Assembly: GCA_044221725.1 (NCBI GenBank) | Contig: JBGAON010000001.1 | Coordinates: forward strand, 335,480-399,479 | Source: Elusimicrobiota bacterium | GTDB lineage: Bacteria > Elusimicrobiota > Elusimicrobia > F11 | Length of the DNA: 64,000 nucleotides | Reading direction: 5' to 3' | Part shown: positions 5,244-61,528 of the stretch, one piece after another | How positions within the stretch are numbered: position 1 is the stretch's first letter | How the letters are laid out: every line of letters begins with the position of its first letter | Position numbers and translations under genes: made by a program | Notes under the pieces: model-generated | What the model was told of the DNA's origin: nothing | The model's input: the letters and a program-made list of their open reading frames with translations, nothing else | Database searches by the model: none

Positions 5244-6182
5244 TTGCTCGACCAACTTTCAACGTCGGTTCCTCCGGATTATTACGACCACAATGATTCC
5301 GTGCAGAATTGTTTTTTGTGTGGCGCCCCATCGTATCAGGTCTATCAGAAGTCTCACGATTTCGGACTGCCGTTGGTTTTTCAACAGTGTCGGTGCGGCC
5401 TTATAAAACAAACGCCGCTTCCCAACGAACGTTTTTTTAACTGGTTTTTCAACGCCCCGGTATTTTACAGTGCGGCCCACGCACGCAATGCGAGGATTTG
5501 GGGCTATCAGGATTACTTTGGCGACGAGCGTAGTCGCATGGCAACGGCTCGCCTTCGCTACAAAAAGTTGAGCGTCTATTTCCCGCGCCAATCGGGCCTT
5601 CGTATTTTGAAGATCGGCCCTGCCACCGGAACCTTTCTTAAAGTGGCCAATGATCATGGTCATCACGCGATTGGTTGCGATATTTCTTCAGAATTTGTTG
5701 CCTTTGCGCGCTCGCGTTACGATGTGCGAATTGATCACGGAAGATTTGAGAAGATGCGTTACGAGTCCGAGCAGTTCGATATTGTTGTGTTGTTCAATGT
5801 CATCGAGAATATTCCGAATCAGGACGAGATTTGGAGCGAAATACAGCGTGTTCTTAAACCCAATGGGATTTTTATGTTCAACTATGTTGATATGCAATCG
5901 AACATCATTGCGAAGCTGCAAGGCTCGCGTTATTTTCTATTCCGTCCGCCGGTTTGTTACGCGTTTTCAGCCTCTCTCATTGAGCGACTCCTCGGGCGGT
6001 TCGGTTTTGAGCCCATCGTGACAAAACGCGACACGCGATACATGACACTTGAAAAAATTCTCACGTTGCTTCGACTGAATTATCTCGCTCGGCTGTTTCA
6101 AAGAATAGGAATCGCGAAACTTCCATTCCCAATTTTTGCGTACCCTTCTCGCATTGTCGTCGCGCGAAAACACACAGCGTAA
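5244..6182 (+). CDS. class I SAM-dependent methyltransferase with N-terminal Cys-rich zinc-ribbon-like segment
   Basis: CFLCGAP...CRCG motif, then LKIGPATGTFL (motif I), VVLFNVIENIP, LKPNGIF. TTG start. Confidence 0.7.
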   Translation: MLDQLSTSVPPDYYDHNDSVQNCFLCGAPSYQVYQKSHDFGLPLVFQQCRCGLIKQTPLPNERFFNWFFNAPVFYSAAHARNARIWGYQDYFGDERSRMATARLRYKKLSVYFPRQSGLRILKIGPATGTFLKVANDHGHHAIGCDISSEFVAFARSRYDVRIDHGRFEKMRYESEQFDIVVLFNVIENIPNQDEIWSEIQRVLKPNGIFMFNYVDMQSNIIAKLQGSRYFLFRPPVCYAFSASLIERLLGRFGFEPIVTKRDTRYMTLEKILTLLRLNYLARLFQRIGIAKLPFPIFAYPSRIVVARKHTA

Positions 6183-8488
6183 TGGAAGAAAATCGTTTCT
6201 GGAACAATCGCAGCCTGTTTGCCATTTTGCTGATTGTTCACCCGTTTGTGACGTTGCTGATCCATCCGAACATTATTTACATCGGGTTGCAGCAGGATCC
6301 GGCCCAGGCTCTTGGCGCGATTCTAAACTTCGACTTTCTGCACAACGTGCTCATGAACGACCGGCGATTGGACCGTCTTCCCATGATTTTCTTGAGTTAT
6401 CCTTTCTACAAGGTCTTTCCGGCCATGGTGGCCCACCATCTTCTTTATTTCATTTCCTGCTTGGGTATTCTGACGTTGATGTTTTTCACCACGCGGCTCT
6501 TCGCCCCCGAGCCGAAGGCGATGCTCGCAACCCTTCTCTTCGCAACAAATTTCTGGATTTTGCCAACGTTTGGGGATGTCTATTTGAACCGGTACATGAT
6601 TCTTTTCTTCCTGGCGGGTTTTTATTTTGTCGTTAAAGCTGCTCGGGCGGAGAACCAAATAGCGCGGCCCATGATAAGCGGTTTCTTCGCCGCATGCGCC
6701 TTTTTTTCACACTTCGCGGCGTTGCCACTTCTTTTCGTCGGTCCGCTTTATTTTTTTGTTGAGAAGATCGCACAAAAGAAGTTTTCCATGCGGGAAACTC
6801 TTAATTTCGTTAATTATTTTGCGGACGGTTTCGTGGTTTGCTTCTTGTGTTTCGGGTTGTTCAACTATTTGTTTTTGAACGGGCGTTTCCTCTTCTTCAT
6901 TAATCAGTTTGCCATAAGCCAGGCTGATTACAGCGACCGTGCTTCGGGTTTTGCGGATGTGTTTCAACCGATTTCGAATTCTTTGTTGTTGATCACGTTT
7001 GTGGCGGCAATCGTAACGCTTCGTCAGCAGCGGGAGTCTTCTCGGCAAAGAATCGTCGCGTGGTGGTTTCTTTTTGCGGCGACGCTTTATTTGATGTTGT
7101 GTATCGCAAACGTCTGGTTGCTTCCAAAAAGTCCGATTTTTCCACGAATGTTGATTCGCGAGTTTTTCCGTTTGTGGCCAGTGCCTTTCGCGTTGCTAAC
7201 GCTTTATTGTTGTCTTATTCCTGAAGATTTCAGGTTAACGCCGGTCCGATTGCTGTCTCTTTATGCCGCGCTTATGATCTCGATTTCTCCCGCTTCTTCG
7301 GCGTTCGTTTCACTAACGAAATTGGCGCCGTTGCTGGCGAGAAATACACTAACAATCGCGTTGATTGGGTTTGTCATTGTTGGGTTCGATCGTTATCCCG
7401 GAAACCGAAAATGGATGGCTGGATGCGCATTTGGACTCGCGCTGCTTATGCGGTCTGTGTTGTTTGCCGCGTATCCGGTAAATGCCGCAAACGGGTACGC
7501 CGACCGTTCTTATTATTCCCGCCTGTACCGCGCAAATGCCCTGCTTCAAACTCCATCCGCCTCTCGAAATTTTTATTGGTTAAACAAGAAGCCGGAGGAC
7601 GTCACGCTGTGGGATGAATACAAGACCATTGGTATCTTCTGGCTCTGTGACTACAATCCGATGGTGTTGGGGGGAAATCCCTTCTTCGGGCCCGGCCCGG
7701 CAGGCGTGACCAATTATGTTGAAGAATCCATGAAAGAGAACAGTCGCATTATCCTCGTCGACGAAGATTTGGATGGCAACGCAATTGAACAGAAAAACCC
7801 CGCCTTATTTCCGTACGGTATGCGGCTCCGCGAAGAATCCCGCCAAAAGGTCAGCTCTGATGACAAGAAATACTATCTGATCCGATGCCGAGCGGATCCC
7901 TATTTGGATTTTGCTCATTGGGACAAATCGCTGTTAGCGGAGCACACCGGTCTTACGCACATTGCGAACGGAAATTTTAAAGAGGGCATGGCCGGCTGGG
8001 AGGGGGGCGATTCCAGCGCGTCGTGGCCCGGTAAGGCGCAGTACAAATTTGCGACCTCAAATTACACGTTGAGTCGCAATCCCGACGACCGGAGCTTGTT
8101 GATCGAAACATCGAATCATTTGATCAATATCAACACGCATGTAAAGAATCTGGAAGTGGGAAAGCTGTATTCTTTCTTGATCCGTTTCAAAATTGTTCGA
8201 ACCGATTTGCTAGGAAACAAGCCGCAATCTCTCAAGGCGGAGGATTCCAAAATCAGCGACCTTATTTATTTTTATGACAGCAAAGGCGCCATTCCGATGA
8301 TATCGCCGACGGGGAGTTCTGCCAAAGCCGAATGGCTCGAGGATGGTTTCGCATTTATCGCGCGGGAGGCCGAGTCCTCTTTGTGGATCTATTGTTCGTC
8401 GGATGGAACCTATAAGAATTCTTGTTTTATCGACGACGTCCAAGTAAAGCCGATTACCGCCAATTTGTCCGGTCCGTCCGAAAACTGA
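6182..8488 (+). CDS. polytopic membrane protein, candidate GT-C-fold (ArnT/PMT-like) glycosyltransferase with C-terminal CBM4_9-like domain
   Basis: About 13 predicted TM helices over the first ~540 aa, with an acidic first loop (NDRRLDRLP). C-terminal soluble ~230 aa beginning [14 protein letters not shown], resembling CBM4_9. Follows a GT2 Und-P-sugar synthase. Fold assignment is inference. Confidence 0.4.
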
Positions 8489-18300: not shown

Positions 18301-21300
18301 TTGGCTATGAGACCACCCCTTCTCAAGGCCGTTGCCACGCCTCTCTCTGTTGTTGTTCTCGCCACAAATTGCCTGTTCGCGCACTCCGTCGAAGTAAATT
18401 TTTGGACCGAAAGGCGCACCACCTCGCCAACGTCGATTTCTGCACGTGGAGGTGAAATCCCCGCAAGACCTGGCCTCTGGGGGATTTCTCAATTTGGCAC
18501 CGTCCGTAAGATCTTAAAACCAAGAGGCGTTTCGAAAGGAACGGTTCTGCACATCCAAGACATTCATCGAAATCGCGAAGCACAAACGGCTATTTCCAAA
18601 GCCGTTCAACAATTAATTAACAGCGACTCCATTGATCTCATCGCACTGGAGGGCGCTTTCGGCCCCATCGACCTTTCGTTGTTTCGAAAATTTCCCTCTA
18701 GAAATTCGGTGAAGATTGTTGCCGATTATTTGTTCCGCGAAAATCAAATCGCGGGCGCCATTTTTGCTGCCATCACGAGTGACCGCGGAGGGCCCGCGCT
18801 AATCGGTGTCGACGCGCCCTCCCCTTACGCAGCGAACGTGAATGCGTACAAGCAAGCAAAGCCTTTTGTTCGATCGCGAAAAGAAGAAATTGAGCGGTCC
18901 GCGGAGAAAATTGCGGTCGACAAGAAGCGTCTGTTTAACTCGAAACTGTCGACATTCGATGCGGATGTTCAGCGCTTTCGCAGCGGCGAATTATCGTGGG
19001 GCTACTACGTTCGGCATTTGTGCGCGTACTCCGGCGCCATCCCCGACGACGTTCAAGGTTTTTTGTCGGCGCTCAACATGGAATCTCAGATTGATTATGC
19101 GGGCATGGAATCGGAACGGACCGCGCTCTTAAACAAACTCGTCGGTCATCTCACCGACAAGCAAAAGGCGGAATTGCTGAACGCGAGCGCCGCCTATCGG
19201 GCGGGGCAGCTCGGCCATTCTGATTTTTATCTTTATCTAAAACGACTGTCTGTTAAGCGTGGGATTTCGTTGGCAGCGTACCCGGTCTTTAACCGTTACG
19301 TTCGTTACGCACGGCTGGCTGACAGCGTCGATGCCGAAAAGGTTCTCGAAGAAACGACCGCCATGGAAAAAGCGATTTATTCCCGGCTGGCGGTTACCGA
19401 TGCGGAGAAACGGCTCGTTCAAAAATCGCGCGAGCTTTATTTGATCCGCAAACTTGTGGAATTTGCGCTGACGAAAAGGGAGTGGGAGGAACTAAAGCTG
19501 TCGCCCTGGAACGCCTTAATCCAGGGCCCACTTTCTTCCGCGAAAATGACGGATCTGCAGCCTTTCGCAGAATTTTACAAGCAAGCCGAGCTTCGCGATG
19601 AAGCAATGGCCAGCAATTTTTTAAATTGTCTCCGATGTACGAAGCACCCCGTACGAAGTGCCTTTGTCCTGATTACGGGTGGCTTCCACTCCACAGGCAT
19701 TGACCAACGACTTGTTGATGCGGGTTACACGATCGTTGCCTTTGTTCCGAAAATTTCGAAGGTCGAATCCTCGGGTGGCACAAGTTATCTGACGGTATTC
19801 GCCCAAGAAAAAACGCCGCTCGAAAAATTGTTTGCGGGCGAAAAGCTTTTTGTGAGTCCTCCCGTGGTTCCGAAAAATCTTTTTCCCGCAAAGATAATGC
19901 TGGATCAGCATGTGTCTTTGTTGCGAACAAAGTGGGAAGGCAACGACGAGCGAACCGTGACCACGCGGGCCCGCGGCTTTGGTTTGACCACCACCTTCGC
20001 ACGGAACAAAATTGTTTCCTCGAGAATCGTCTTGGCAAATGAGCCTGTGCCGGCCGGCACCGCGACCGGCCATGCGTTTGGAAATGCGGGCCGGTGGTAC
20101 GGTCTCCGCGGCTTCTTGCTGGGGGGCTTTGTGAACGCGTTGTTTGCCTTCTTTGTGATGTATCCGTACGGGGATTTTTCAAACGTGTACGTGCGGGGGG
20201 GAATCGCCGCGGTGGCTCTTTTCGGCGGTGTTTATGGCGTCGTTGGTTTTCGGTCAATCTTTAATACCTACGGGAACGAACTTGTCGGTTACCATCTAAT
20301 GGCGCGCACCCGAAAGATTGCGGTGGAAAAAGCAGCGCGCTTGGGTTTGTCACGACCGGAAAACGTTCTCTATATTCCGCTGCTCAAAACGCATATTTGG
20401 CTCAACCGAAAGTTTGATCGCAGTCGTGGAATTCAGCGTTGGATTGCGAATCCCATGATTCTTTCCCATGAGATATTCCCGTATCACACCTTCGGCATGA
20501 TCGGCATGGTCTTCCTGCCCCTCACATTGTTGGTTCAAGCGATCTGGGTATGGAACAACGAATGGGTCACACATCCGCTCGAGCGGCAGAAACTTCTTGA
20601 TCAAGAAATTCGGCATTTCGTGCGCATGACCGGAATCGCTGACGGAGATGCGAACGCCTTGATTCGCGATCTTCGCAAACGAACCATTGTGGTTCAGAGC
20701 CGAGGGGAAGCGTTTTGGCGAATGTTGGTATCAAACACCATTTTTTTTGTTCCGCTCGTCGGTGCGCTCACGACGGTACTAATTTTTTATCAACAACCGA
20801 TCGAGATGGTGGTGTTCCCGGCTATGTTCGGAGCTCTAATGATTATCGTTTTATCGGCTTCCTCTGCGTTCGGAGAATTTCTTGGTGTTGCATTGCCGTT
20901 TTTGAACCTCATCTTGATTATGGATGAACAGATGCACAGCGATCACCTTCGTGGAGAAGTTATTTTTCACGAGTTGACGCACCATGTTTTCCCCGATTGG
21001 CGTACCGGCCGGGAATCGGTCGCGTATGCGGCTTCCTATATGGAAACGCTTCGGCGTGTGGAGCGGGGATACTCCGAGCAGACCGATACCGAGCTTGAGC
21101 GGATTCGTCGCGATATAAGTTCCGCGCCGCTGGACCAGTTGGTCAAGCGATACAAAAAAAAGGCCATTTTTACGGTCGCCCAAGATTCGCTCCGTGGCGA
21201 TCATTTTGTTGAAGATACGATTGAACCTCGGTTCAGTTATCCCTTTGGAAAGGAACTCGCCTACGTAGCGCTTGAATTGTTAAAGAATGACCCTCACAAA

Positions 21301-24078
21301 TTTCACCGAGCGTACGAGATTGGTGTTGAACTGGCGCAAGGCATTCCGCTTGATAGAGCGTTTCACAATCGAAAAGTAAAAATTTTGTTGGCCGATGAAA
21401 TGCCCGAGGCAAAAATAAATGCGCTCGTCGCTGAATATGGCGGACTCGTCGAGTTGGTGTCCCAAAACGGAGTTCGAGCCAGCGAAGGAAGAACCGCGAA
21501 GCAGAATTTGCTCGAAATTATTCGGCGTAAAAAGCCGACGATAATGGTTGTTCGTTCCGGAACAAAACCGGACGGCGAAATTCTCGAAGAAGCGTTTCGA
21601 CAAAACCCCGGTTTTGAAATTGTTCGAGCCGGAATGGGGCTTGATGGGGTTGATTTGCAGAAGGCCGATGAGTTGGGGGTTGCTGTTAAGCGGACAGGAG
21701 GAAGCGAAAACTCGGTCGCCAACTTGGCTCTGCGTTTTTTCTTGGCGGGACTTCGAAAGCAAGACCGGAATTCGACGCGACCCGCAACTGTCCAAGCGGC
21801 GCTCGACATCGCAAACGATGCGGAGTGGAAACAAAAATTGGGCTTAATCAATCTTTTGGAGTTTAGCGGAGCCGCCGAAAAATCCGCAGCGGACGGGCGC
21901 GGACGGCTTGCGGATGACGAGTTCCGCGCAATTTTCGAACCGATGTCCGTTGATCAAGTAAGAAGACTGGTTGAATCCCGTTTTTCTGGCAAGACGATTG
22001 GTCTGTATGGTTGGGGCGCCATTTCACAAGCTTTTGCGAGCAAGCTCAAAGCCCTGCGAGACCTGACCGGAGGGACGTTTAACATTGCGGCGTATTCACC
22101 GGCGCTCCGCAGAGGGCTTGTGGACGCTCGTGTGAAGGCCGAAGCGCTCGATGTCGAGAGTATGTCCGAGCACGAATTGCTGACGCAAGCGCACGTCATC
22201 TCGCTTCACATTCCTCTCGATGAATCAACACGCTGGAAATTCGTTCCGGATAGTTTTGTCGGTAATCCGAATATCGAAATGCTTATCAATACGGCGCGAC
22301 CTTCTATTGTGCAAGCAGCGCTTGTGGATGCGGCAGTCCGCGATCGCCACGAAGGATTTTTTTACTTTGCAGACGGAAAATTCGCTGAGTTGGACGCCTT
22401 GCGTGGCAAATATCCGGCGAACGTTTTTATCACACCCCACATCGGCGCAAACACGAAAGACGGAATTGACGGCGTGGAAAAAAACACCGTGCGCACGTTG
22501 CGCGCCTCACTTCAGGAGCGCATTCGCCGTGGAAAGGGCGATATAACGCTCCTGATTATTCTCGTGGTAACTTTTGGAGCATGGGCTTCAAGGACGTCCT
22601 ATTTTTTAATCCCTCTGTTGAGTGTGCTCGCTTTCGCGATTTGGCCACGGATGGCCGGAGGCGCCTTTTTGTTTCCTTCGCCGAACGGTGAAGAAAGTCC
22701 TCTGGAAAAAACGGCCGAACAGAAGCGGGAAGAGATGGGGAGTGGTTTTTCGAGTTCGTTGGGCGTTGATCCAACCGATCTGGAAGTCGGGTCGATTGTT
22801 GGCGAGGAATATGTTGCAAATGCTCCAACGCTCGAAAGCGAAAGCATTCTGCGGGCCGAGCGTTACATTTTCATCATCGCATTAACGGCCACGGCGCTAT
22901 TGGGCGCCTTTCGAGTACCCATCGAAATGCTTTGGAAGATCAGCGTCATCTTGTTGCTGCTGCCCAACCTTGGCGTTGCGCTCTCCATTGTGGTGCAACA
23001 TTGGCGTCGCGTCCTGATTAAAGTGGCCGATGTGCCTTTGTTGTATATGGTGAAGCGCGCCAAATGGAGCGATCGCCTAGCGATTGGCTTCGGTTCGATT
23101 TTCTTTAACTTCGTCCCGAGCTTGCTATTCCTGCTGCCATTGATTGCTTTGTTGTTCGTCTTTGCGCTATTCCCAAATTTCAAACCCGTCGAGCGGCGGG
23201 CGTGGGTGTTCCTGCCGTTGTTTTTCTTTGCGTCTTATTTTCTGGTTCCAAAGCTCGAGCACGTTATTTTGTCGATAAAGATTTATTTGCACACGAAATT
23301 TAATGTCTGGCGCGGCAAGAAGTCGCTAGCGACCGTGCCACCGTCAACGAATGGCATGGCCGACCAGCTCCCCGAGTCACGTTTGGTGGAAACTGTCAGC
23401 GCAGACTTACAGGCCCGCTTGGTTCGCGGGTTGGAAGATGCGGTGCCAAATCTTCCTTCATCCGTTGGTGGCGCAGAGGAATTGACGAATCAGCTTAAAC
23501 ATCATGCGATTCCGGCTGCGGTGCGGTCGGCGGCCGTAGGTTTGGATCAGGCTTTAAACCGGGCGTTCCAACCGAAAATCAACAATATTCAAATTTTCCA
23601 CGTCGCTTCACCTGAAGACGTTCGTGATCTCGAGTCTGTTATTCTCCAAATGAAGAAAAACAACGCGCAGCGCGATGATGGGATCAGCTGCGTATGTGTC
23701 GTTCTTGCTCGGGGAGTGGATTCCGAAATTGATTGGAGTGTTCAAAAGTTGCGGCGAGCAACCGTTACCTGGGATTGGGTCGAAATCATTAAGGAGGAGC
23801 GGTTGATCGCGCCCGGCACGAATAAAATCGACTATAAATCACTGTTCAAAATTGCCCAAGAGGGGTTCCTCGCAAAACCGGAGCCGACGAAGCTCTTTCG
23901 TGAACTTTATGAGGGCAACTACGCGGATAAGCGCCTCGTCGTCTGGGGACATTCCAATATCCGCTACGAGGCCGACGAGAACCTGCTTCCAATTCTTACG
24001 CTTGTTGTTCGAGTGGCAGGCGAAATCTATGGTGTTCTCGATCTGCGGAATTGGCGCGAGCGGGCCACCGCCGCTTGA
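18301..24078 (+). CDS. 1925-aa polytopic membrane multidomain protein: Tiki/TraB/GumN-like periplasmic domain + HExxH-containing TM region + internal D-2-hydroxyacid dehydrogenase domain + unknown C-terminal domain
   Basis: Signal peptide. GTVLHIQDIH...IDLIALEG and C-terminal VLITGGFHSTG GxxH motifs (TraB/GumN/Tiki-like). TM cluster 1 containing VIFHELTHHVF (HExxH). 2-Hacid_dh catalytic plus NAD domains (RAGMGLDGVDLQKADELGVAVKRTGGSENSVANLAL; GKTIGLYGWGAIS; NTARPSIV; TPHIGANT). TM cluster 2. ~260-aa C-terminal domain with no recognisable family. Confidence 0.6.
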   Translation: MAMRPPLLKAVATPLSVVVLATNCLFAHSVEVNFWTERRTTSPTSISARGGEIPARPGLWGISQFGTVRKILKPRGVSKGTVLHIQDIHRNREAQTAISKAVQQLINSDSIDLIALEGAFGPIDLSLFRKFPSRNSVKIVADYLFRENQIAGAIFAAITSDRGGPALIGVDAPSPYAANVNAYKQAKPFVRSRKEEIERSAEKIAVDKKRLFNSKLSTFDADVQRFRSGELSWGYYVRHLCAYSGAIPDDVQGFLSALNMESQIDYAGMESERTALLNKLVGHLTDKQKAELLNASAAYRAGQLGHSDFYLYLKRLSVKRGISLAAYPVFNRYVRYARLADSVDAEKVLEETTAMEKAIYSRLAVTDAEKRLVQKSRELYLIRKLVEFALTKREWEELKLSPWNALIQGPLSSAKMTDLQPFAEFYKQAELRDEAMASNFLNCLRCTKHPVRSAFVLITGGFHSTGIDQRLVDAGYTIVAFVPKISKVESSGGTSYLTVFAQEKTPLEKLFAGEKLFVSPPVVPKNLFPAKIMLDQHVSLLRTKWEGNDERTVTTRARGFGLTTTFARNKIVSSRIVLANEPVPAGTATGHAFGNAGRWYGLRGFLLGGFVNALFAFFVMYPYGDFSNVYVRGGIAAVALFGGVYGVVGFRSIFNTYGNELVGYHLMARTRKIAVEKAARLGLSRPENVLYIPLLKTHIWLNRKFDRSRGIQRWIANPMILSHEIFPYHTFGMIGMVFLPLTLLVQAIWVWNNEWVTHPLERQKLLDQEIRHFVRMTGIADGDANALIRDLRKRTIVVQSRGEAFWRMLVSNTIFFVPLVGALTTVLIFYQQPIEMVVFPAMFGALMIIVLSASSAFGEFLGVALPFLNLILIMDEQMHSDHLRGEVIFHELTHHVFPDWRTGRESVAYAASYMETLRRVERGYSEQTDTELERIRRDISSAPLDQLVKRYKKKAIFTVAQDSLRGDHFVEDTIEPRFSYPFGKELAYVALELLKNDPHKFHRAYEIGVELAQGIPLDRAFHNRKVKILLADEMPEAKINALVAEYGGLVELVSQNGVRASEGRTAKQNLLEIIRRKKPTIMVVRSGTKPDGEILEEAFRQNPGFEIVRAGMGLDGVDLQKADELGVAVKRTGGSENSVANLALRFFLAGLRKQDRNSTRPATVQAALDIANDAEWKQKLGLINLLEFSGAAEKSAADGRGRLADDEFRAIFEPMSVDQVRRLVESRFSGKTIGLYGWGAISQAFASKLKALRDLTGGTFNIAAYSPALRRGLVDARVKAEALDVESMSEHELLTQAHVISLHIPLDESTRWKFVPDSFVGNPNIEMLINTARPSIVQAALVDAAVRDRHEGFFYFADGKFAELDALRGKYPANVFITPHIGANTKDGIDGVEKNTVRTLRASLQERIRRGKGDITLLIILVVTFGAWASRTSYFLIPLLSVLAFAIWPRMAGGAFLFPSPNGEESPLEKTAEQKREEMGSGFSSSLGVDPTDLEVGSIVGEEYVANAPTLESESILRAERYIFIIALTATALLGAFRVPIEMLWKISVILLLLPNLGVALSIVVQHWRRVLIKVADVPLLYMVKRAKWSDRLAIGFGSIFFNFVPSLLFLLPLIALLFVFALFPNFKPVERRAWVFLPLFFFASYFLVPKLEHVILSIKIYLHTKFNVWRGKKSLATVPPSTNGMADQLPESRLVETVSADLQARLVRGLEDAVPNLPSSVGGAEELTNQLKHHAIPAAVRSAAVGLDQALNRAFQPKINNIQIFHVASPEDVRDLESVILQMKKNNAQRDDGISCVCVVLARGVDSEIDWSVQKLRRATVTWDWVEIIKEERLIAPGTNKIDYKSLFKIAQEGFLAKPEPTKLFRELYEGNYADKRLVVWGHSNIRYEADENLLPILTLVVRVAGEIYGVLDLRNWRERATAA

Positions 24079-39987: not shown

Positions 39988-41952
39988 ATGAAAAAAATCT
40001 TGGTTCTCTTGATGACGGTGGCGGGTCTCACTCCGATCTTCGCCGACGATTCCTATGTGGAGCCGGGATCGCTCCGCCTCTCTCACGAAATTGTAATTGA
40101 AAATGTGATGCACCGTTTGGATTCCGGTTGGCGCGCAACGAATAACAATCTCGATAAGACCTACACGAAAGACGGTTCCGGTAATCCACCGTGGAAATCC
40201 GAATGGGGGGAATCTCTTTTAACCGAAGCGGCGACGCGCATCACGCCGGATATATTTGGTCGCGTGCTTTTCGAAATGCAAGGCGATTACGCGGATCGGT
40301 TCTGGCGGCCGAACAACATCGAGCATGACATTGATAATAAGGACCGGTATGTTTTTCTAAGGCAAGCGGAGGCGCGTGTCGATAAAGATGAGTGGTTCGT
40401 GCATGGCTTCCAAGGGGTCGGTCACAACGACTGGTACGACAAAGGGGATTTCTTCCATTTGTATCCGGCGTCATACCCCGACGACGATTATCTTGGCCGC
40501 TCCGGTGCATTTGGAATTTATCCCGATCCGTTTAAACAAGATAACTTTCTCAATATTTCGAAACGACATGCGCCGCGCGGCGTCGAGGGCGGGGTAAACG
40601 CCTTCGGAATGGACTTCGGCGCTGCGCTCGGTAACGAGCTCAACTTCGGTTACAACGAAGCCGCGTATGGTCGCGTGTCTGCGCCGATCGGATCAACCCG
40701 ACTCACGTTCGTTTACAAAAACGAGGATGTGCCTTACATGAAAGCGGTGGATCCTGATAATAATGAGCGCGACCGCGCGTACGCGTTGTCCTGGCGGGCT
40801 CCGTTTGAAGCCGGACATGTGTTCGAAGCCGGTGTAAAATACCGGCCGTTTCGCGTGGGCCAGAATTATTTAATGGCGAACGACGTTTCCGCAGGTTCAG
40901 GGCTGCAAGGCTCCTCGACGGAAATCACCGAGGGAAAGACCGGGACGAAGGACGCGTTTGCGGAACGCATTCGATACGAGCATCACGCGTCTCTCAAAGA
41001 CCGGGTTGTTGTGTTGTCGGCGGATGTCACGCATGCGGGCCTTGTCGCTGGGAACAAAAATGAAATTGATTTGAGTGCGGCCACCGACATAGTTCCCGTG
41101 TTTCGCGGCATTCTTGATTACACGTATCGCAAGCCGCTGGAAGGACCAATTCCGCTGTTGTATGAGGGAACACCCGCAAATATGGGTGCCATTGCGGCGA
41201 ATCCACGCAGCCCAGAAAGCCCGTTTACCGTCGATTGGGATAATCGCGAAGCTGTTTTTCTTACAGCGACATTCATTTTCGATCCTACTCCCGGAACGAG
41301 CATGCTCAAGTACAATCCGAGCAGTTTGCAAATGTGGAACGTAAATTCAGAAGAAAATGCACCGTTTAATGTCGCGTTCCAATACAAGATGAGCGATTAT
41401 CGCACCGCCACCGACCGGCTTACGTACATCGATGCGGAAGGAAATTACGTTTTCGAACCGGCCGGCCACGAGGGCGCCTGGGCAACCGACCATCCGATTA
41501 GCGCGTACAGTCTAATGTTGCTTGGCCATCCTCATCGCTGGAGCTGGATGCTCGGTATTTCGGGCGGACAAATGCTCGCGTATCAGAGCTTGGCGTATAC
41601 CACCGACACCAGTGTCAATAAACCCATCACCGATTTTTATTCGATCGAAGCAAAACTTGAACGTTGGCCGTATACATTGTGGGCGCATTACGGTTATGGT
41701 GTTTGGGGACCGGAAAATTATCAGGCGCAATTTGGTGAGGCGTTTGATCGATTGTGGGGTCTGGGTCTAAGTTATAAGATCACCGTCAATACAACCGTCG
41801 ATGTAAGTTATTTGGCGGCGCGCCAAGACGACAACTTGTTTGTCGCCCCCGACCTTGGCTCGTACGACGAAATTCGCACGTTATTTTCTCATCGCTTTGG
41901 TTTTCAATTTCAATTTGTTGAAGCTGCGCGCAGCGGTTACCAAGCGCGATAG
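39988..41952 (+). CDS. secreted, probable outer-membrane beta-barrel / porin-like protein
   Basis: Signal peptide MKKILVLLMTVAGLTPIFA. Aromatic and Gly-rich alternating segments. Follows a sugar ABC importer that lacks its own ATPase. Function is inference. Confidence 0.35.
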   Translation: MKKILVLLMTVAGLTPIFADDSYVEPGSLRLSHEIVIENVMHRLDSGWRATNNNLDKTYTKDGSGNPPWKSEWGESLLTEAATRITPDIFGRVLFEMQGDYADRFWRPNNIEHDIDNKDRYVFLRQAEARVDKDEWFVHGFQGVGHNDWYDKGDFFHLYPASYPDDDYLGRSGAFGIYPDPFKQDNFLNISKRHAPRGVEGGVNAFGMDFGAALGNELNFGYNEAAYGRVSAPIGSTRLTFVYKNEDVPYMKAVDPDNNERDRAYALSWRAPFEAGHVFEAGVKYRPFRVGQNYLMANDVSAGSGLQGSSTEITEGKTGTKDAFAERIRYEHHASLKDRVVVLSADVTHAGLVAGNKNEIDLSAATDIVPVFRGILDYTYRKPLEGPIPLLYEGTPANMGAIAANPRSPESPFTVDWDNREAVFLTATFIFDPTPGTSMLKYNPSSLQMWNVNSEENAPFNVAFQYKMSDYRTATDRLTYIDAEGNYVFEPAGHEGAWATDHPISAYSLMLLGHPHRWSWMLGISGGQMLAYQSLAYTTDTSVNKPITDFYSIEAKLERWPYTLWAHYGYGVWGPENYQAQFGEAFDRLWGLGLSYKITVNTTVDVSYLAARQDDNLFVAPDLGSYDEIRTLFSHRFGFQFQFVEAARSGYQAR

Positions 41953-51890: not shown

Positions 51891-53165
51891 ATGAGAGACC
51901 GGAAACGTAAAAATAATTGGAGTGGCGGCTTCGCTCTGGTGCTTGGTTTGGCGCTGGCTGCTTTCTTGCGCCCTGTTTCTGCATTCCAGATTGTGCAGAC
52001 CTCCAATGTTACGTGCCGCGTGGTGATTGGCGGAGTTCCTCCGGGCAAATTGAAGTTCCAGCATAATCCTCTTCAAAAGGTTTCCCCGGTGGACGATATG
52101 ATCATTATCATGGGTCAGGCTGGTTCCGAAGTTTTACCGACCCAGCCCACGTACGAAGAGTCGCTTAAAACGAATTCGGATTTTGGGCCAGCAGAAGATC
52201 GGAAGATCCGCGTCGTTGTTCAATACCGATTTGTTCCCTCGCTCGATAATCAAGACTCCGTGCCGTTCGTAACGTCGAGCAATATCGAGGGTCCGGATCC
52301 TACACCGTTTGCTTTTCAAATTGATCCGGCGTCCGTTCAACCCGGTTTCTTCCAATATCGGTTTGTCGCAACCGGATTGAATTTCGTGAACGGGCAGCTT
52401 GTCCCGATTTCACAAACAACCGGAGAATTGTTTACGGTTGGTGTGCAGGCCAACGCAAGCCAGGTTTTCGGCCCGGCGGGCGGCACGTTTATTCTTGCGA
52501 ACGGAAACCAAGCAGTCGGCCAAACATCGTTGGCAATTCCTTCCGGTGTGTTTCGGCAGCCAACAACGGTTTCAATCGATGAGATTCCCTCGAATAGCCC
52601 CAGTGTTCCTGCTGGACTTAACAATCCAATCAGCGTGTTTCATCTTGATTCCGACGGGCCGGCACGCGGAATTTTCCAGTTATCGCTTGTGTATCCGGAC
52701 TTTGAATATCCGCGAGGTCGCGACGGGGTTGTTGATGGCACGAATATTCCGGTTCAAAACCTTTCAATCCAGTGGTGGGACGGGTTTGTGTGGCGCGGTG
52801 GCGGCGGGACAATCAACACAAAGACAAATACAATCTCGACGCGCATCAGCGCTTTGAGTTTCGTCGCAATAATGGCGGCGCCTGTGATGACGCCGGAGGA
52901 TCGGCGACCGCTGGAACGCGTGATCACACCGAATAGCGACGGCATTAACGATGTGCTCAATTTTGCGTTTGGTGATTTGGCCGAAGATGTAAAAGTGGAG
53001 ATTTTTGATGTCGGCGGTCACCGCGTGCGAACGCTTCATAGTTTGACAAACATGCAATGGGATGGTCGCGATGATGACGGCAAAGTGGTGGAAAGCGGTG
53101 TTTACATTTATCAATACGACGTCAACAGCAAACGCATCAGCGGCGTCGTCGCGGTGGCGAAATAA
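51891..53165 (+). CDS. secreted protein with T9SS type-B (gliding-motility-associated, CHU_C-like) C-terminal sorting domain
   Basis: Signal peptide cleaved before AFQIVQTSN. C-terminus ITPNSDGINDVLNF...VKVEIFDVGGHRVRTL...WDGRDDDGKVVESGVYIYQYDV matches the type-B CTD. Confidence 0.65.
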   Translation: MRDRKRKNNWSGGFALVLGLALAAFLRPVSAFQIVQTSNVTCRVVIGGVPPGKLKFQHNPLQKVSPVDDMIIIMGQAGSEVLPTQPTYEESLKTNSDFGPAEDRKIRVVVQYRFVPSLDNQDSVPFVTSSNIEGPDPTPFAFQIDPASVQPGFFQYRFVATGLNFVNGQLVPISQTTGELFTVGVQANASQVFGPAGGTFILANGNQAVGQTSLAIPSGVFRQPTTVSIDEIPSNSPSVPAGLNNPISVFHLDSDGPARGIFQLSLVYPDFEYPRGRDGVVDGTNIPVQNLSIQWWDGFVWRGGGGTINTKTNTISTRISALSFVAIMAAPVMTPEDRRPLERVITPNSDGINDVLNFAFGDLAEDVKVEIFDVGGHRVRTLHSLTNMQWDGRDDDGKVVESGVYIYQYDVNSKRISGVVAVAK

Positions 53166-56100
53166 TGGAAGCGAATAACTATTGTCGTCATTCCCGCGAA
53201 AGCGGGAATCTAGGTCTCAAGCAATTTTTTGAATTCAGGCTCAAAGCCTGGATTCCCGCTTTCGCGGGAATGACGTTATTGCTTTTGCCCGGACTGGTTC
53301 ATTCCGAAGCGACGAAGGAATATACGCGCGACGCCGGAATTTATAGCGCGAACCCGTTCAGTATCTTCACGTTCTCGTTTAGCTCGATCAACGTTGATTT
53401 TGATTCCACGTCGGACCCGAACCCGCCAGAGGGATTAAAAGTCGCGAGCACAACCGTCGCGACCCAATGGGGAGGATGGGGAATATTCAATACGACCGCG
53501 ATGGGCAACAACGTCGTTACCGATTTGAATTTTTCGGACTATGTGAACGGGCATTTGCGATTCTGGTTAAAAAGCCAAATTGCGCTTGATGTAAAGATCG
53601 AATATCAGCAGGGGTCGAATGCCGTGCAAGTTTCCAGCAGCGTGGCCAGCACAGGCAACGCGTGGAAAGAAATTGTAATTCCATTGCAGTCGGGTGGCTT
53701 TGGTCTAAACAACGGTCAGATGAACCGCATCCGTTCTCCATTTATTGTGGTGGCTCCGCAAACGACCGGCGTGCAAAAGCAATGGTTCATCGATCACGTG
53801 CGCTGGACAAAACCTGTCACGTCCATCGTTATGTATCCGCCGTCGACCACGGTTCAACAAGGTTTCCACCGCTTGTTTACCGCGGAAGGTCGCGATGCCG
53901 CGAACGAACGTGTCATTATTTACCCCACGTTCAGTGTTTCTCCGACGGTCGGAACATTTACTCCGGCTGACCCGACTCCGGTCACAGCGTCACGCTTGAA
54001 CGCGACCGGCGCGAGCGGCGTTGCAAACGCGGTTTTTTCACCGCTATCGGCGTCCTCCGTGGTCACCATTACCGGATCTCACATTAATGACGAGCTTGGG
54101 TTGCTTAGTGAAACAATCCCGTCGTCGTTGATCCTTAATACTGACAGCGAGTTGGATGTGTCCTCGGGCGGCGGCGGGACGGATCCGGTGTTATTGGATG
54201 AATCGAGCAGTGATGTACGGGAGGGCGTGCGCCGTTTTAAAACGACCATCAGCGCGCAGCCGGCGAATGGCTTTAGCGGGTGGTTTATTCAATGGAGTAC
54301 GAACGCCGCGAACACGGTGACACGCGACATGAGCAATTATTACGACGGATCGTTGCGGTTCTGGTTCAAAGGTCCGGCCGCTCTACAAAACGTACTCCAG
54401 ATTTCTGTTCGGTCCGGAAATACCGAAGCGGGCACCGAACTATCAAAAGTGAATCTCAAGAACTACGTGACGTTCGATGACACGTGGCGACCGGTTGTCA
54501 TTCCCATTTCCGATTTCACTGGTGCGCGGCCCAAAGCCGATTTGTCGCGCATGAAAATATTGTTCGGAGCTTTTGCGGTCGGTGCCGTTGGAAGCGTACA
54601 AACGTTCTATATCGATAATCTTCGCTGGGACACAAATATTCCCGGCGCGCTGGCATCGCTCACGGTGTCGCCAGCATCGGTGACGGTTCCGCTTTCAGCG
54701 AAACGCCAATTCGTCGCCAAAGGCTTCGACGCGAACGGCGTGTCCGTTGACATCTTCCCAACATGGACAATCACCGGTGGCATCGGTTCGGTAAACCCAT
54801 CGCAGGGGGCCATCACGCAATTGACCGCCGCCAGCTCCGCGCAATCGGGAACTCTCAAAGCCAGTCAAGGAGCGGTATCAGCGACCGCGTCGGTAAACGT
54901 GGCCGATGTTCAATGGGTGCAGTCGTTCAACGTGTATTCGGACAATGGGTCTGGCGGATTTGTTGGAGTTGCTAAGGGAACGAACAACGGCACCGTGATG
55001 AATTTGAGCGAGCAAAATTTGGGCGCGGGCGTGGCGCCCGAAGGAAAATTTGTGCGCCAATCGAACTACACACTCGTTAACAATCCGAATCTTCAAGACG
55101 CGTTCGCGATTTGGTTCACCAACGCGGACGCGGGCACCGGCTCGCGCTTCATGCATTACTTTGATACGGGCTATCTTTATTTTTGGGTACGCACGACTCA
55201 GGACCTACAAATCTCGATTCGCTCCGCCAACATAACAGCGGGGAACGAGCGTTCGAAATTTCGATTGAGTGAGCTTGGTGTTCCGCTCGACAACAATTGG
55301 CAGAAAGTGGTGATCGCGCTTGCCGATTTCAAGAACCGCGAACCGCTTTTGGATTTTGACCAGATTCAAACGTATTTCGCTATCGGCGCCGTGTCGTCGC
55401 AGATTGGGCCTGTTACGAACCAAACGTTTGACGTCGATGATGTGAAATGGCTCACGAACAATCCGGGCCAGCCCGACGACAACAAGATTTACATTGGTCT
55501 CAAAGAGAAACAGGCCGCGGGGGGGCTTGTGCGGTCGTTCGATACGTTGCTCGATGCGTACACCTACGATCAGGCGCTTGCCGCTATGAATTACACGTAC
55601 CGAAAGGACGTGGCGTTATCCAAAAAAGTTTTTGACGTTTATAAATATGTCCATGATAATTACGGCGGTACCTTCAGCGGTTTTCACGAGGATTACAACA
55701 TCAATTCGGCGGTGGGCGGGTACACGGTGCTGAATAGCAGTCGCGTCGCCGGGCCAAACGCTTGGATTCTTCTCGCGATGATTCATTACCGGAATGTAAC
55801 GGGTTCCACCGCGTACGACACGGTGATTAACGACGTGGCGGCGTGGTTGCGCGGATTGCAGGGGGCTGACGGTGCTGTGCAGTTTGGGCGTGTAAATTCG
55901 ACATTGATCACTCTTAAATCCACCGAACACAATTTCGATGTGGTGGCCGCGTTTCGCGCGTACGCAAAAATGAGTGGCAACAGTGCGTACAACAGTTACG
56001 CGGACGCCGCGCGCAATTGGCTTCAGACACAAATGTACGTTCCCGCCCAGCAACGTTTTAACGTGGGCACGTACGCGAACGGAACCACAAACACGGATCG

Positions 56101-57142
56101 TGCGCTCGACGCTTATTCGTGGGCCCCTCTCGCCCTTTCCTCCTTCACGAACGTGTTGACGACCGCCGAGACCGATTTCAAGAACACAAAGGTGTGTGAT
56201 TTGACGGGACTCAGTGTCACGGGATTTGATTTTTCGGGTCCACCCAACTTTGGCCCCGACTTGGACGCGGTGTGGTTGGAGGGAACAGGCCAAATGGCGC
56301 TTGCCTATTACCTTACCGACAATCTCGCGAAAGGCGATTTTTACCTGCAAGAGCTCGATAAAGCGATCGTGAACACGTCCGCCAACGGCCAGGGCATGGC
56401 GTACGCGACGAACAACGGCACCGCCTACGGTTTTAATATGAATTCGCTGAATCCAGCCATAAGTTCAATGGCGTGGTATCTGTTTGCAAAGCAGAAATTC
56501 AATCCGTTCAAGCCTTATCCGATTTATGAGTTAAAAATCATGGACACGGCGTCCGGGACCGAACGTTCGTCGGTTGGCTTTACGGTTTCGGTTCCCGCGG
56601 CATGGGTGCGAGCGGATCAATACATCAAGCTCGATGTGCAACCGAATTCGGTCGATCCGTGGGGCTTGCAAATTTTGACGGATAACACGCAGCCAACCGT
56701 GGTTCCTCGTTTTGTTGATCCCACGCCGGGAACAACGTCCAATTCGGACTCGAATCCAGCGGGACTCCTTTTGGAATTGACCGGTCAAACAACAACGCCG
56801 TACCAAATCAACATGGCGTGGAGCGTCAAGGATACGAGCGCAACCGCCACCATGCCAATCGCAACCGATCCAAATTCCGGCGCGCCAAACTCCTTTCAGT
56901 GGATTTTTATGAAAGACCGCGCGACTCCAGACATTCCTTCAATGAACACGGTCGCGTTTGCGAACGGGCAAGATGATGTGATTGTTCGAAAAGCCGTGAG
57001 CGGAAGTCATACGTCCCAGGGACCTGCCGGATACACCGCTTCCGTTTCGCCGGACTACTTATTTCTAGAAGCAAATTTTAATTCCGCTGCGGCCCAGGTC
57101 CGCTACTTAGCGCATATCACGTTCGAATTTTTCCTGCAATGA
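53165..57142 (+). CDS. 1325-aa secreted multidomain surface protein (3 CBM-like beta-sandwich modules, 2 Big_2 Ig-like domains, alpha/alpha-toroid-like domain, C-terminal shared module)
   Basis: ATG overlaps the upstream stop (TAATG), but the first 35 codons are the translation of the palindromic element (SRESGN / IPAFAGMT). A more plausible start is ATG 53270. Repeated ...LRFWLKS / LRFWFKG / LYFWVRT modules. Big_2 segments (TVSPASVTVPLSAKRQFVAKGFDANG). Central GPNAWILLAMIHY...TG module. Last ~200 aa paralogous to 50232..51065. Confidence 0.6.
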   Translation: MEANNYCRHSRESGNLGLKQFFEFRLKAWIPAFAGMTLLLLPGLVHSEATKEYTRDAGIYSANPFSIFTFSFSSINVDFDSTSDPNPPEGLKVASTTVATQWGGWGIFNTTAMGNNVVTDLNFSDYVNGHLRFWLKSQIALDVKIEYQQGSNAVQVSSSVASTGNAWKEIVIPLQSGGFGLNNGQMNRIRSPFIVVAPQTTGVQKQWFIDHVRWTKPVTSIVMYPPSTTVQQGFHRLFTAEGRDAANERVIIYPTFSVSPTVGTFTPADPTPVTASRLNATGASGVANAVFSPLSASSVVTITGSHINDELGLLSETIPSSLILNTDSELDVSSGGGGTDPVLLDESSSDVREGVRRFKTTISAQPANGFSGWFIQWSTNAANTVTRDMSNYYDGSLRFWFKGPAALQNVLQISVRSGNTEAGTELSKVNLKNYVTFDDTWRPVVIPISDFTGARPKADLSRMKILFGAFAVGAVGSVQTFYIDNLRWDTNIPGALASLTVSPASVTVPLSAKRQFVAKGFDANGVSVDIFPTWTITGGIGSVNPSQGAITQLTAASSAQSGTLKASQGAVSATASVNVADVQWVQSFNVYSDNGSGGFVGVAKGTNNGTVMNLSEQNLGAGVAPEGKFVRQSNYTLVNNPNLQDAFAIWFTNADAGTGSRFMHYFDTGYLYFWVRTTQDLQISIRSANITAGNERSKFRLSELGVPLDNNWQKVVIALADFKNREPLLDFDQIQTYFAIGAVSSQIGPVTNQTFDVDDVKWLTNNPGQPDDNKIYIGLKEKQAAGGLVRSFDTLLDAYTYDQALAAMNYTYRKDVALSKKVFDVYKYVHDNYGGTFSGFHEDYNINSAVGGYTVLNSSRVAGPNAWILLAMIHYRNVTGSTAYDTVINDVAAWLRGLQGADGAVQFGRVNSTLITLKSTEHNFDVVAAFRAYAKMSGNSAYNSYADAARNWLQTQMYVPAQQRFNVGTYANGTTNTDRALDAYSWAPLALSSFTNVLTTAETDFKNTKVCDLTGLSVTGFDFSGPPNFGPDLDAVWLEGTGQMALAYYLTDNLAKGDFYLQELDKAIVNTSANGQGMAYATNNGTAYGFNMNSLNPAISSMAWYLFAKQKFNPFKPYPIYELKIMDTASGTERSSVGFTVSVPAAWVRADQYIKLDVQPNSVDPWGLQILTDNTQPTVVPRFVDPTPGTTSNSDSNPAGLLLELTGQTTTPYQINMAWSVKDTSATATMPIATDPNSGAPNSFQWIFMKDRATPDIPSMNTVAFANGQDDVIVRKAVSGSHTSQGPAGYTASVSPDYLFLEANFNSAAAQVRYLAHITFEFFLQ
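53187..53274. repeat. MITE-like palindromic element: perfect 24-bp terminal inverted repeats flanking 40 bp
   Basis: GTCATTCCCGCGAAAGCGGGAATC (53187-53210) and its exact reverse complement GATTCCCGCTTTCGCGGGAATGAC (53251-53274). Each arm is itself a hairpin (ATTCCCGC-GAAA-GCGGGAAT). The central 40 bp contains a further hairpin AGGCT-CAA-AGCCT. Confidence 0.75.
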
Positions 57143-61391: not shown

Positions 61392-61528
61392 TTCCCTTGA
61401 GGGTATCCCCAAGAGTCTTCGTTTTCGAGTCGGTTGCCCGTCGAAAACGAGCCGAAAAGACTAAGTGTTGCTTTGCTCGGTCTTTGATAGCATTATCGCG
61501 GTCCAAAAAAACAAGATAGGGAGGATGT

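Follow-up and report, generated by a model that had tools for sequence, protein, structure and literature searches.

A paralogue of a large constant-head, variable-body protein family in an Elusimicrobiota bacterium, with a head of Tiki/TraB-like fold and an embedded D-2-hydroxyacid dehydrogenase domain

The 64,000-nucleotide stretch of DNA analyzed here (the window; positions 335,480 to 399,479 of contig JBGAON010000001.1 in the Elusimicrobiota bacterium assembly GCA_044221725.1) contains an open reading frame (ORF) (18307..24078, + strand) whose product of 1,923 amino acids (aa) is one paralogue of a very large family, so far without annotation, of proteins with a constant N-terminal domain (the head) and a variable remainder (the body). 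All features of this protein are given below in window coordinates and lie on the + strand. The ORF is a genuine gene for a modular membrane protein of this bacterium. A first-pass annotation of the window had described a single uninterrupted ORF of 1,925 aa; positions 18301-24078 do represent one open frame of 1,925 codons if read from an alternative TTG start at 18301, but the protein in the database has 1,923 aa and begins at the ATG at 18307, with the stop codon at 24076-24078. This product is recorded on an NCBI contig of 871 kb, and an independent Logan assembly (SRR28480390) carries an identical protein with the same neighboring genes on a contig of 26.9 kb, which makes a chimeric join or a frameshift very unlikely; an assembly artifact was therefore rejected, and the uninterrupted frame stands as first described. 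Base composition is uniform along the ORF, with no compositional break, and no internal tandem repeats were found in it; promoter and terminator scans scored no better than shuffles.

The head is the element that unites the family. In a sequence search, aa ~1-545 represented the only region common to 46 homologues (20-43% identity), and pairwise similarity among these 46 members was almost nil outside the head. A head profile scored against 1.84 billion cluster representatives (50%-identity clusters) matched 10,224 representatives at E ≤ 1e-3 and 7,243 at E ≤ 1e-30; the head was N-terminal in all 150 best matches, which ranged in length from 553 to 6,142 aa, and the median length of 177 sampled family proteins was ~2,150 aa. 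Species-representative genomes were also scanned with TGGFH...QEKTP patterns derived from a 68-aa sub-alignment of the head, which yielded at least 321 confirmed family loci, most of them holding ORFs of 1,100 to more than 4,000 codons. The best 80 of these loci were all from Elusimicrobia/Elusimicrobiota metagenome-assembled genomes (MAGs), including that of Ca. Obscuribacterium magneticum; counting these 80 alone, there were 5 to 9 loci per genome, so that copy numbers are at least 5 to 9. A second paralogue (P0016) is located on the same contig as the gene described here, and more distant members are labelled Candidatus Omnitrophica (P0037 and P0040) or "bacterium F11".

The variable part of these proteins is up to ~5,600 aa long and is built from hydrophobic helix clusters together with enzyme or binding domains that were acquired sporadically. 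Pfam domains detected in individual bodies include a glycoside hydrolase of family GH18 and a hexokinase (P0003), a Glu/Leu/Phe/Val dehydrogenase (P0019), triosephosphate isomerase (TIM), malate synthase and isocitrate lyase (P0043), sigma-70 regions 2 and 3 with five copies of region 4 (P0013), a PLP enzyme and GNAT (P0030), an SNF2 helicase with a methyltransferase and a helix-turn-helix domain (P0021), a hexokinase (P0042), and a PEP-utilising enzyme with FBPase (P0160). Nineteen further bodies contained adenylate kinase, 4-alpha-glucanotransferase, dehydroquinate synthase, epimerase, and methyltransferases, as well as TPR, HEAT, dockerin, receiver, and HD domains. The dehydrogenase found in the protein described here was present in only two of the 177 sampled members; the other one, P0142, combines the same head with a homologous dehydrogenase and, directly after it, a hexokinase; the stretches that link head and dehydrogenase in the two proteins are unrelated. 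The first-pass annotation knew of no described protein combining these parts, a view that is not supported, given that the same head occurs in more than 10,000 clusters and that P0142 repeats the pairing. Because the head is constant while bodies are shuffled among paralogues, head and dehydrogenase are unlikely to form a dedicated pair. Word-indexed protein searches with sub-segments of the ORF missed the 1,923-aa parent itself, and negative results of such searches are thus unreliable for fragments of giant proteins; a search with aa 540-1060, for example, had no matches at all, and one with the dehydrogenase segment returned only free-standing phosphoglycerate dehydrogenases (PGDHs), and neither the parent (P0001) nor P0142.

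The head (aa 57-481, 18475..19749) belongs, at the level of fold, to the Tiki/TraB/ChaN/erythromycin-esterase superfamily, a placement supported by fold search and motif order, and it lies outside any curated Pfam family. An AlphaFold2 model of the head had a predicted local distance difference test score (pLDDT) of 83, and its fold relatives were EreC, the haem-binding lipoprotein ChaN, the type III effector HopBA1, and a TraB-family protein. The superfamily fold is an alpha/beta arrangement in which a central parallel beta-sheet is flanked by helices (PMC6254334), and the head has this architecture. Four motifs were located in the head, i.e., HIQDIH at the end of the first core strand (aa 82-87, with Asp85 and His87; 18550..18567), ALEGAF with the invariant Glu115 at the end of the second core strand (18643..18660), ELRDEAMASN with the invariant Arg430 (19588..19617), and TGGFHSTG with the invariant Gly458, Gly459, and His461 (aa 457-464, 19675..19698); the first and last of these, HIQDIH and GGFHSTG, are where the first-pass annotation had placed them. 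In an alignment of 33 heads (numbered from aa 30, such that alignment positions equal protein numbering minus 29), H87, Q93, E115, G167, F423, R430, G458, G459, H461, and P481 were invariant, and D85 was at least 90% conserved. In the model, R430 lies in the helix before the last core strand and H461 just after that strand, and D85-x-H87, E115, R430, and H461 are found where the superfamily signature predicts them, positions that were mapped by motif order and model secondary structure and not by residue-level superposition.

Compared with the catalytic set of the superfamily, which comprises two His and two Glu (an E-x-H motif after strand 1, a Glu after strand 2, and a His in the second GxxH motif), the head retains H87, E115, and H461 as invariant residues, but its first acidic position is Asp85 instead of Glu. 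A basic residue close to the active site is conserved in Tiki-type enzymes (Arg-4001 in RRSP; PMC6254334), and R430, invariant in the 33 homologues, matches this residue. The head resembles the superfamily in its motif order (strand-xDxH, strand-E, helix-R, strand-GGxH, all invariant). In TraB/PrgY and Tiki proteins the domain is tethered to transmembrane (TM) helices, as is the head here. The head differs from the superfamily by an all-helical insert of ~250 aa (aa ~170-415), by the Asp in its first motif, by a conserved linear motif at its C-terminal end, and by its fusion to bodies of 600 to 5,600 aa. Two Pfam results weigh against the superfamily placement, as PF01963 (TraB) gave no match at E ≤ 10 and PF04187 (Cofac_haem_bdg, ChaN) reached only 16.3-18.9 bits (cut-off 27.7), with a match limited to aa ~414-463. 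The Tiki/TraB-like domain proposed in the first-pass annotation is consequently supported at the level of fold but not by either Pfam family. A comparison of the head profile with PDB sequences yielded nothing beyond weak matches of the helical insert to calmodulin/centrin (E ~1e-4), and the Tiki relationship was found only by the fold search; the fold search result, EreA/ChaN, also led us to reject a reading of HIQDIH as part of a calcineurin-like metallophosphoesterase. The weak match in the insert covers aa ~188-307 (18868-19227) and is to calmodulin/centrin EF-hand pairs, with aligned loop positions that are not acidic Ca-binding residues; the insert is therefore probably a degenerate helix-loop-helix scaffold, as judged from its sequence.

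The fold is followed by a conserved linear motif, SYLTVFAQEKTPLEKLFAGEKLFVSPP (aa 493-519, 19783..19863), which showed 72% mean column identity in 13 homologues. This motif, which reads SYLTVFAQEKTPLEKLFAGEKLF at aa 493-519, lies beyond the fold and is unpacked in the model, where the region of the linear motif (residues 459-496 in model numbering) had pLDDT values below 50. Its family consensus, YLSVFxQEKTPLxKLFxGEKLF, represents the most conserved stretch of the family.

The domain at aa 1023-1408 (21373..22530) is a D-isomer-specific 2-hydroxyacid dehydrogenase, as had been proposed, of a divergent, PGDH-like type, with both Pfam domains above their cut-offs (2-Hacid_dh_C, PF02826, 52.8 bits vs 25.1; 2-Hacid_dh, PF00389, 28.7 bits vs 24.6). 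The best PDB match was the PGDH 2ekl (1e-12) and the best NCBIfam match was also a PGDH, although the score for the PGDH equivalog TIGR01327 (70.4 bits) was below the cut-off of 454; the nearest free-standing relatives are SerA-type proteins annotated as PGDH, with 25-30% identity. The motifs GLYGWGAIS (aa 1232-1240), NTARP (aa 1328-1332), and TPHIGANT (aa 1376-1383) were identified, and Arg1331 (NTAR) and His1378 (TPHIG) align with catalytic residues of PGDH structures, in agreement with the earlier description of the catalytic His and Arg as retained. HMMER pairs Asp1363 with the catalytic Glu of PGDH; a two-residue manual shift, which is not tool output, places Glu1361 on the catalytic Glu and Asp1356 on the Asp of the LDV motif, and both Asp1356 and Glu1361 are conserved in P0142. 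The domain is 31% identical to that of P0142 over aa 1017-1410, including an insert of ~45 aa between the two lobes, and the PGDH-like domain is under constraint. It shares with SerA both Pfam domains, the best matches to PGDHs, and the aligned catalytic Arg and His, and differs from SerA by low identity, the inter-lobe insert, two changes at the dinucleotide-binding site, and its embedding between TM clusters of a giant protein. The two changes, a dinucleotide loop (G-W-G-A-I-S, i.e., GxGxxS) without the canonical third Gly and a Ser (Ser1264) aligned with the ribose-binding Asp ("YDP" in 1wwk and 3ddn), are points against an ordinary active enzyme, and the domain could, from its sequence, be a ligand-binding pseudoenzyme; in P0142 the loop is G-F-G-K-I-A, and Ala is found at both changed positions. 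The changed signature is compatible with the use of NADP(H) or with weakened binding, and the dehydrogenase is probably an active enzyme with an altered cofactor preference, possibly for NADP(H).

The N-terminus of the protein carries a Sec-type signal peptide (aa 1-25, 18307..18381), recognized by comparison of family N-termini, which consists of MRPPLLK, a hydrophobic core, a polar TNC, and L-F-A followed by H; cleavage would occur after aa 25. A signal peptide had already been noted in the first-pass annotation. Its textbook arrangement of n-, h- and c-regions recurs across the family, whose N-termini start with a basic n-region, continue through a hydrophobic core into a c-region with polar "TN", and end in a (V/L/A)-x-A site before H, Y, or A. 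A lipoprotein signal was rejected, as there is no lipobox and Cys22 is not conserved. Because the N-termini of the family resemble textbook Sec signal peptides, the head should be exported.

Hydropathy (Kyte-Doolittle) identified six peaks at aa 597-877 (cluster 1, 20095..20937) and six segments at aa 1412-1652 (cluster 2, 22540..23262), consistent with the two clusters of about six TM helices previously reported. No homologue of cluster 1 was found in the other sampled family members, and the TM clusters match no transporter family in Pfam. Around cluster 2, a count by eye of Lys and Arg residues (K/R; 20 vs 4) favors a cytoplasmic location of the dehydrogenase and the C-terminal module. An exported head and a cytoplasmic dehydrogenase would require an odd number of membrane spans in cluster 1, where six peaks were seen. 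Several observations thus weigh against placing head and dehydrogenase on opposite faces of the membrane: simple counting of the even number of peaks between them puts both on the same side; a crude family-wide count of K/R favors a cytoplasmic head side; and some members without any TM segment after the signal peptide carry TIM, malate synthase, and isocitrate lyase, or hexokinase. Positive-inside statistics for the first TM cluster are contradictory across the family, as the subset of proteins with a single TM segment showed no K/R bias, and the hydropathy method is crude. Given the even number of hydrophobic peaks, a topology with the head outside and the dehydrogenase inside is only plausible. 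The sharpest case of this topology paradox is the distant member P0043 (3,305 aa), in which the signal peptide is the sole hydrophobic segment and near-complete TIM, malate synthase, and isocitrate lyase domains are found in one chain.

Our best explanation, in which we place about as much belief as doubt, is that the protein combines an exported hydrolase head, a membrane-anchored body, and a cytoplasmic dehydrogenase that is not a dedicated partner of the head. The head would hydrolyse peptide or ester bonds at the outer surface of the cytoplasmic membrane, in which the helical clusters would anchor the protein, while the dehydrogenase and the C-terminal module would lie on the cytoplasmic face; the dehydrogenase would represent a membrane-tethered NAD(P)-dependent 2-oxo/2-hydroxyacid oxidoreductase, and the protein as a whole may be a small Elusimicrobial counterpart of the "multi-enzyme" giants of Omnitrophota. 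The first-pass annotation had instead suggested a one-off chimera, i.e., a dedicated redox-coupled trans-envelope signaling or processing enzyme or a new transporter-associated activity. The presence of both domains on one chain with TM helices between them, and the repetition of the pairing in P0142, are in line with such a device, which is nevertheless barely credible; the same head is joined to unrelated bodies in more than 10,000 clusters, only two of the 177 sampled members carry the dehydrogenase, that of P0142 is followed by a hexokinase and separated from the head by an unrelated region, and no transporter family matches the TM clusters. Since thousands of paralogues carry the same head on unrelated enzymes, a redox-coupled device is unlikely, and this part of the first-pass annotation is disfavored. 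A constant output (the head) with variable inputs (the bodies) could also describe an inside-out sensor, in which cytoplasmic enzyme-derived domains would sense metabolites, different ones in different paralogues, and regulate a periplasmic head via the helical bundle. The altered dinucleotide signature (GxGxxS, and Asp to Ser), which P0142 shares in kind, would suit a sensing role, but the catalytic Arg, His, Asp, and Glu are conserved in both dehydrogenase-bearing members, suggesting catalysis, many bodies contain several unrelated enzymes or none, and the TM clusters are not conserved, hence there is no common transmission module; we consider such a sensor very unlikely.

Two further explanations place all soluble domains on one side of the membrane. 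In one, which is fairly unlikely, the whole chain crosses the membrane as an effector or surface protein, the enzymes act outside the producer's cytoplasm, and the hydrophobic clusters anchor on, or insert into, another membrane, that of a prey or host. A canonical signal peptide across the family, the even TM counts in this protein, and members that lack TM segments but have metabolic enzymes joined to the head would all be explained; an extracellular prediction is likewise reported for the Omnitrophota giants, and RRSP, HopBA1, and PMT, which are relatives of the head by fold, are toxins or effectors that are delivered. However, domains that depend on NAD, ATP, S-adenosylmethionine, or DNA (dehydrogenase, hexokinase, adenylate kinase, methyltransferase, sigma-70, and SNF2) would be without cofactors or substrates in the periplasm, cluster 2 would break the positive-inside rule unless both the dehydrogenase and the C-terminal domain were cytoplasmic, and no secretion-system or immunity gene is conserved beside family genes. 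In the other, which we judge unlikely, the N-terminal helix stays uncleaved as an anchor or does not insert as a signal, so that the head is cytoplasmic and the protein a membrane-tethered enzyme scaffold, with all soluble domains facing the cytoplasm and short loops alone reaching the periplasm. The 6 + 6 hydrophobic segments would keep the soluble domains on one side, TM-less members keep cytoplasm-type enzymes with the head, and loops on the head side of the first cluster contain more K/R (4.66 vs 2.30; 111 proteins vs 41). This bias, however, is gone in the cleanest subset and was obtained with a crude hydropathy method, and the n/h/c layout of the N-terminus, its conserved -3/-1 site, and an N-flank more positive than the C-flank all argue for a cleaved signal. 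Finally, the head could be an autoprotease that cuts the chain at the linear motif or elsewhere, freeing the body modules from a polyprotein. Some Tiki-type enzymes are site-specific endopeptidases, N-terminal peptidase domains have been suggested to cleave the Omnitrophota giants, and the stretch with the highest conservation in the family follows directly on the fold, unpacked in the model; an exported head would, however, be across the membrane from most of the body, and the body contains no repeated motif resembling a cleavage site. We consider such processing highly improbable.

The closest described proteins are the "multi-enzyme metabolic" giants of Omnitrophota, which combine a signal peptide with TM segments and include the Archaeovorins (West-Roberts et al. 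2023, bioRxiv 10.1101/2023.11.21.568195; Nielsen & Lui 2026, bioRxiv 10.64898/2026.06.07.730766); both preprints report the same topology paradox. The N-terminal regions of those giants are generally without identifiable domains (West-Roberts et al., 10.1101/2023.11.21.568195), and Tiki, TraB, ChaN, PF04187, and erythromycin esterase do not occur in either preprint. Like these giants, the protein described here has an N-terminal signal peptide and many TM helices, and the family embeds divergent domains of central-metabolism and regulatory enzymes in one chain; family domains that match those listed for the giants include hexokinase, TIM, FBPase, PEP-utilising enzyme, and methyltransferase, as well as GNAT, HD, receiver, HEAT, and dockerin. 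In both groups the bodies are extremely unique in sequence, and the head is also present in proteins labelled Candidatus Omnitrophica (P0037 and P0040). Giants have been defined by a length of 10 thousand amino acids (kaa) or more (10.64898/2026.06.07.730766), whereas this protein has 1.9 kaa, one Pfam-detectable enzyme, and 12 hydrophobic segments, and relatives with the same head reach up to 6.1 kaa with two to five enzymes. The family also differs from the giants in being centered on Elusimicrobiota, present in multiple copies per genome, and characterized by the conserved head of Tiki fold. The new elements are this conserved head as a family-defining module, a mid-sized multi-copy expansion centered on Elusimicrobiota, and this combination of modules.

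Some Omnitrophota and Elusimicrobiota devote much of their genomes to giant multi-domain membrane proteins, and thousands of mid-sized relatives start with one well-folding domain of ~500 aa that carries, as judged by its conserved residues, a recognizable putative hydrolase active site. This head provides a handle on these proteins, both as a marker hidden Markov model for cataloguing and as an expressible, assayable soluble domain with H87, E115, R430, and H461 as targets for point mutants. The paralogue described here, with 1.9 kaa, 12 hydrophobic segments, and one NAD(P)-type enzyme, is small enough to serve as a model for the question of inward versus outward orientation; for annotation, the message is that its dehydrogenase is one of many interchangeable body modules and not part of a unique redox-signaling chimera. 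A more far-reaching idea, which is distinctly unlikely, is that the head with its tail motif represents the active entry module of an unrecognised superfamily of exported polymorphic multi-enzyme proteins whose enzymes act outside the producer's cytoplasm. If true, this superfamily would comprise more than 10,000 clusters in Elusimicrobiota and Omnitrophota, perhaps including the giants of over 10 kaa, and the head would process the protein itself or dock it at the cell surface, with enzymes acting, e.g., on or in a prey or host cell.

The C-terminal ~260 aa, described as an orphan domain in the first-pass annotation, had no Pfam match, and only the last ~180 aa folded confidently in structure prediction. 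This Rossmann-like alpha/beta domain (aa 1743-1923, 23533..24075), which ends in ATAA and yielded only generic Rossmann-like matches in a fold search, is not an orphan; by sequence comparison it is a recurrent module of the family, found at the extreme C-terminus of eight of the 177 sampled members. The other copies are in P0004, P0005, P0013, P0052, P0056, P0067, and P0160, always at the protein end, and every copy ends in Ala (e.g., ..AAKQA, ..ATAA, or ..EENA), reminiscent of C-terminal degron or recognition tags.

An HExxH motif (HELTH, aa 888-892, 20968..20982) is located 11 residues past the last hydrophobic segment of cluster 1. The first-pass annotation had included an intramembrane HExxH among the defining parts of the protein; the motif is at that place, but P0142 and the majority of members lack it, and its role as a defining feature is not supported. 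It occurs by chance in ~4% of shuffles of this protein, the surrounding region (aa 876-1075) had no Pfam match at any threshold, no third zinc ligand could be identified there, and no homologue of the region was found among the sampled family members. The position of HExxH immediately after a TM segment is a resemblance, and no more, to the membrane zincins HtpX/M48 and BlaR1/M56, from which the region differs by the lack of a Pfam match, of a third ligand, and of a homologue in the family. Across the bodies of the 177 proteins, HExxH is over-represented about three-fold (39 observed vs 13 expected), and in some members the surrounding sequence resembles that of M48 (SDEE-L-x-x-I-L-x-HE-x-x-H), suggesting that small zincin modules unseen by Pfam recur in the family; the HELTH region is a possible small zincin module.

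The gene is preceded by genes for pyruvate:ferredoxin oxidoreductase subunits, a siroheme-synthase-like gene, a malate/lactate dehydrogenase gene (mdh), and a pterin-4a-carbinolamine dehydratase gene, and followed by rpsF-ssb-rpsR-rplI-dnaB, so that the neighbors previously named (mdh and the dehydratase upstream, rpsF downstream) were found as described. DnaB of the window is 61% identical to DnaB of an Elusimicrobia MAG, which, together with the distribution of the family, points to an Elusimicrobiota origin of the window. In that MAG (locus L016, 1640-8902), rpsF-ssb-rpsR-rplI-dnaB is followed by a family gene, whereas in the window the family gene precedes rpsF; family genes thus adjoin the same housekeeping operon at non-syntenic positions, and where they lie with respect to the rpsF-dnaB operon is not conserved.

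Other large ORFs in the window that matched no Pfam family at E ≤ 1e-5 encode 654-1,325 aa and are located at 53165-57142, 57139-59319, 59316-61412 (-), 39988-41952, and 6182-8488; the 1,325-aa ORF had a weak CBM30 match only. Around the best 80 of the at least 321 Elusimicrobia loci, no conserved partner gene was found apart from an AAA_14/DUF4143-like ATPase. This ORF of ~400 aa, identified by reading of its sequence, adjoins family genes on either strand in 11 of the 80 loci, including L004, L010, L013, L019, L023, L037, L046, L061, L064, and L066. Family genes were also found side by side, in convergent orientation in L024 (8452-14926, + and 16986-20193, -) and in tandem in L039 (8488-16444, + and 16754-20195, +).

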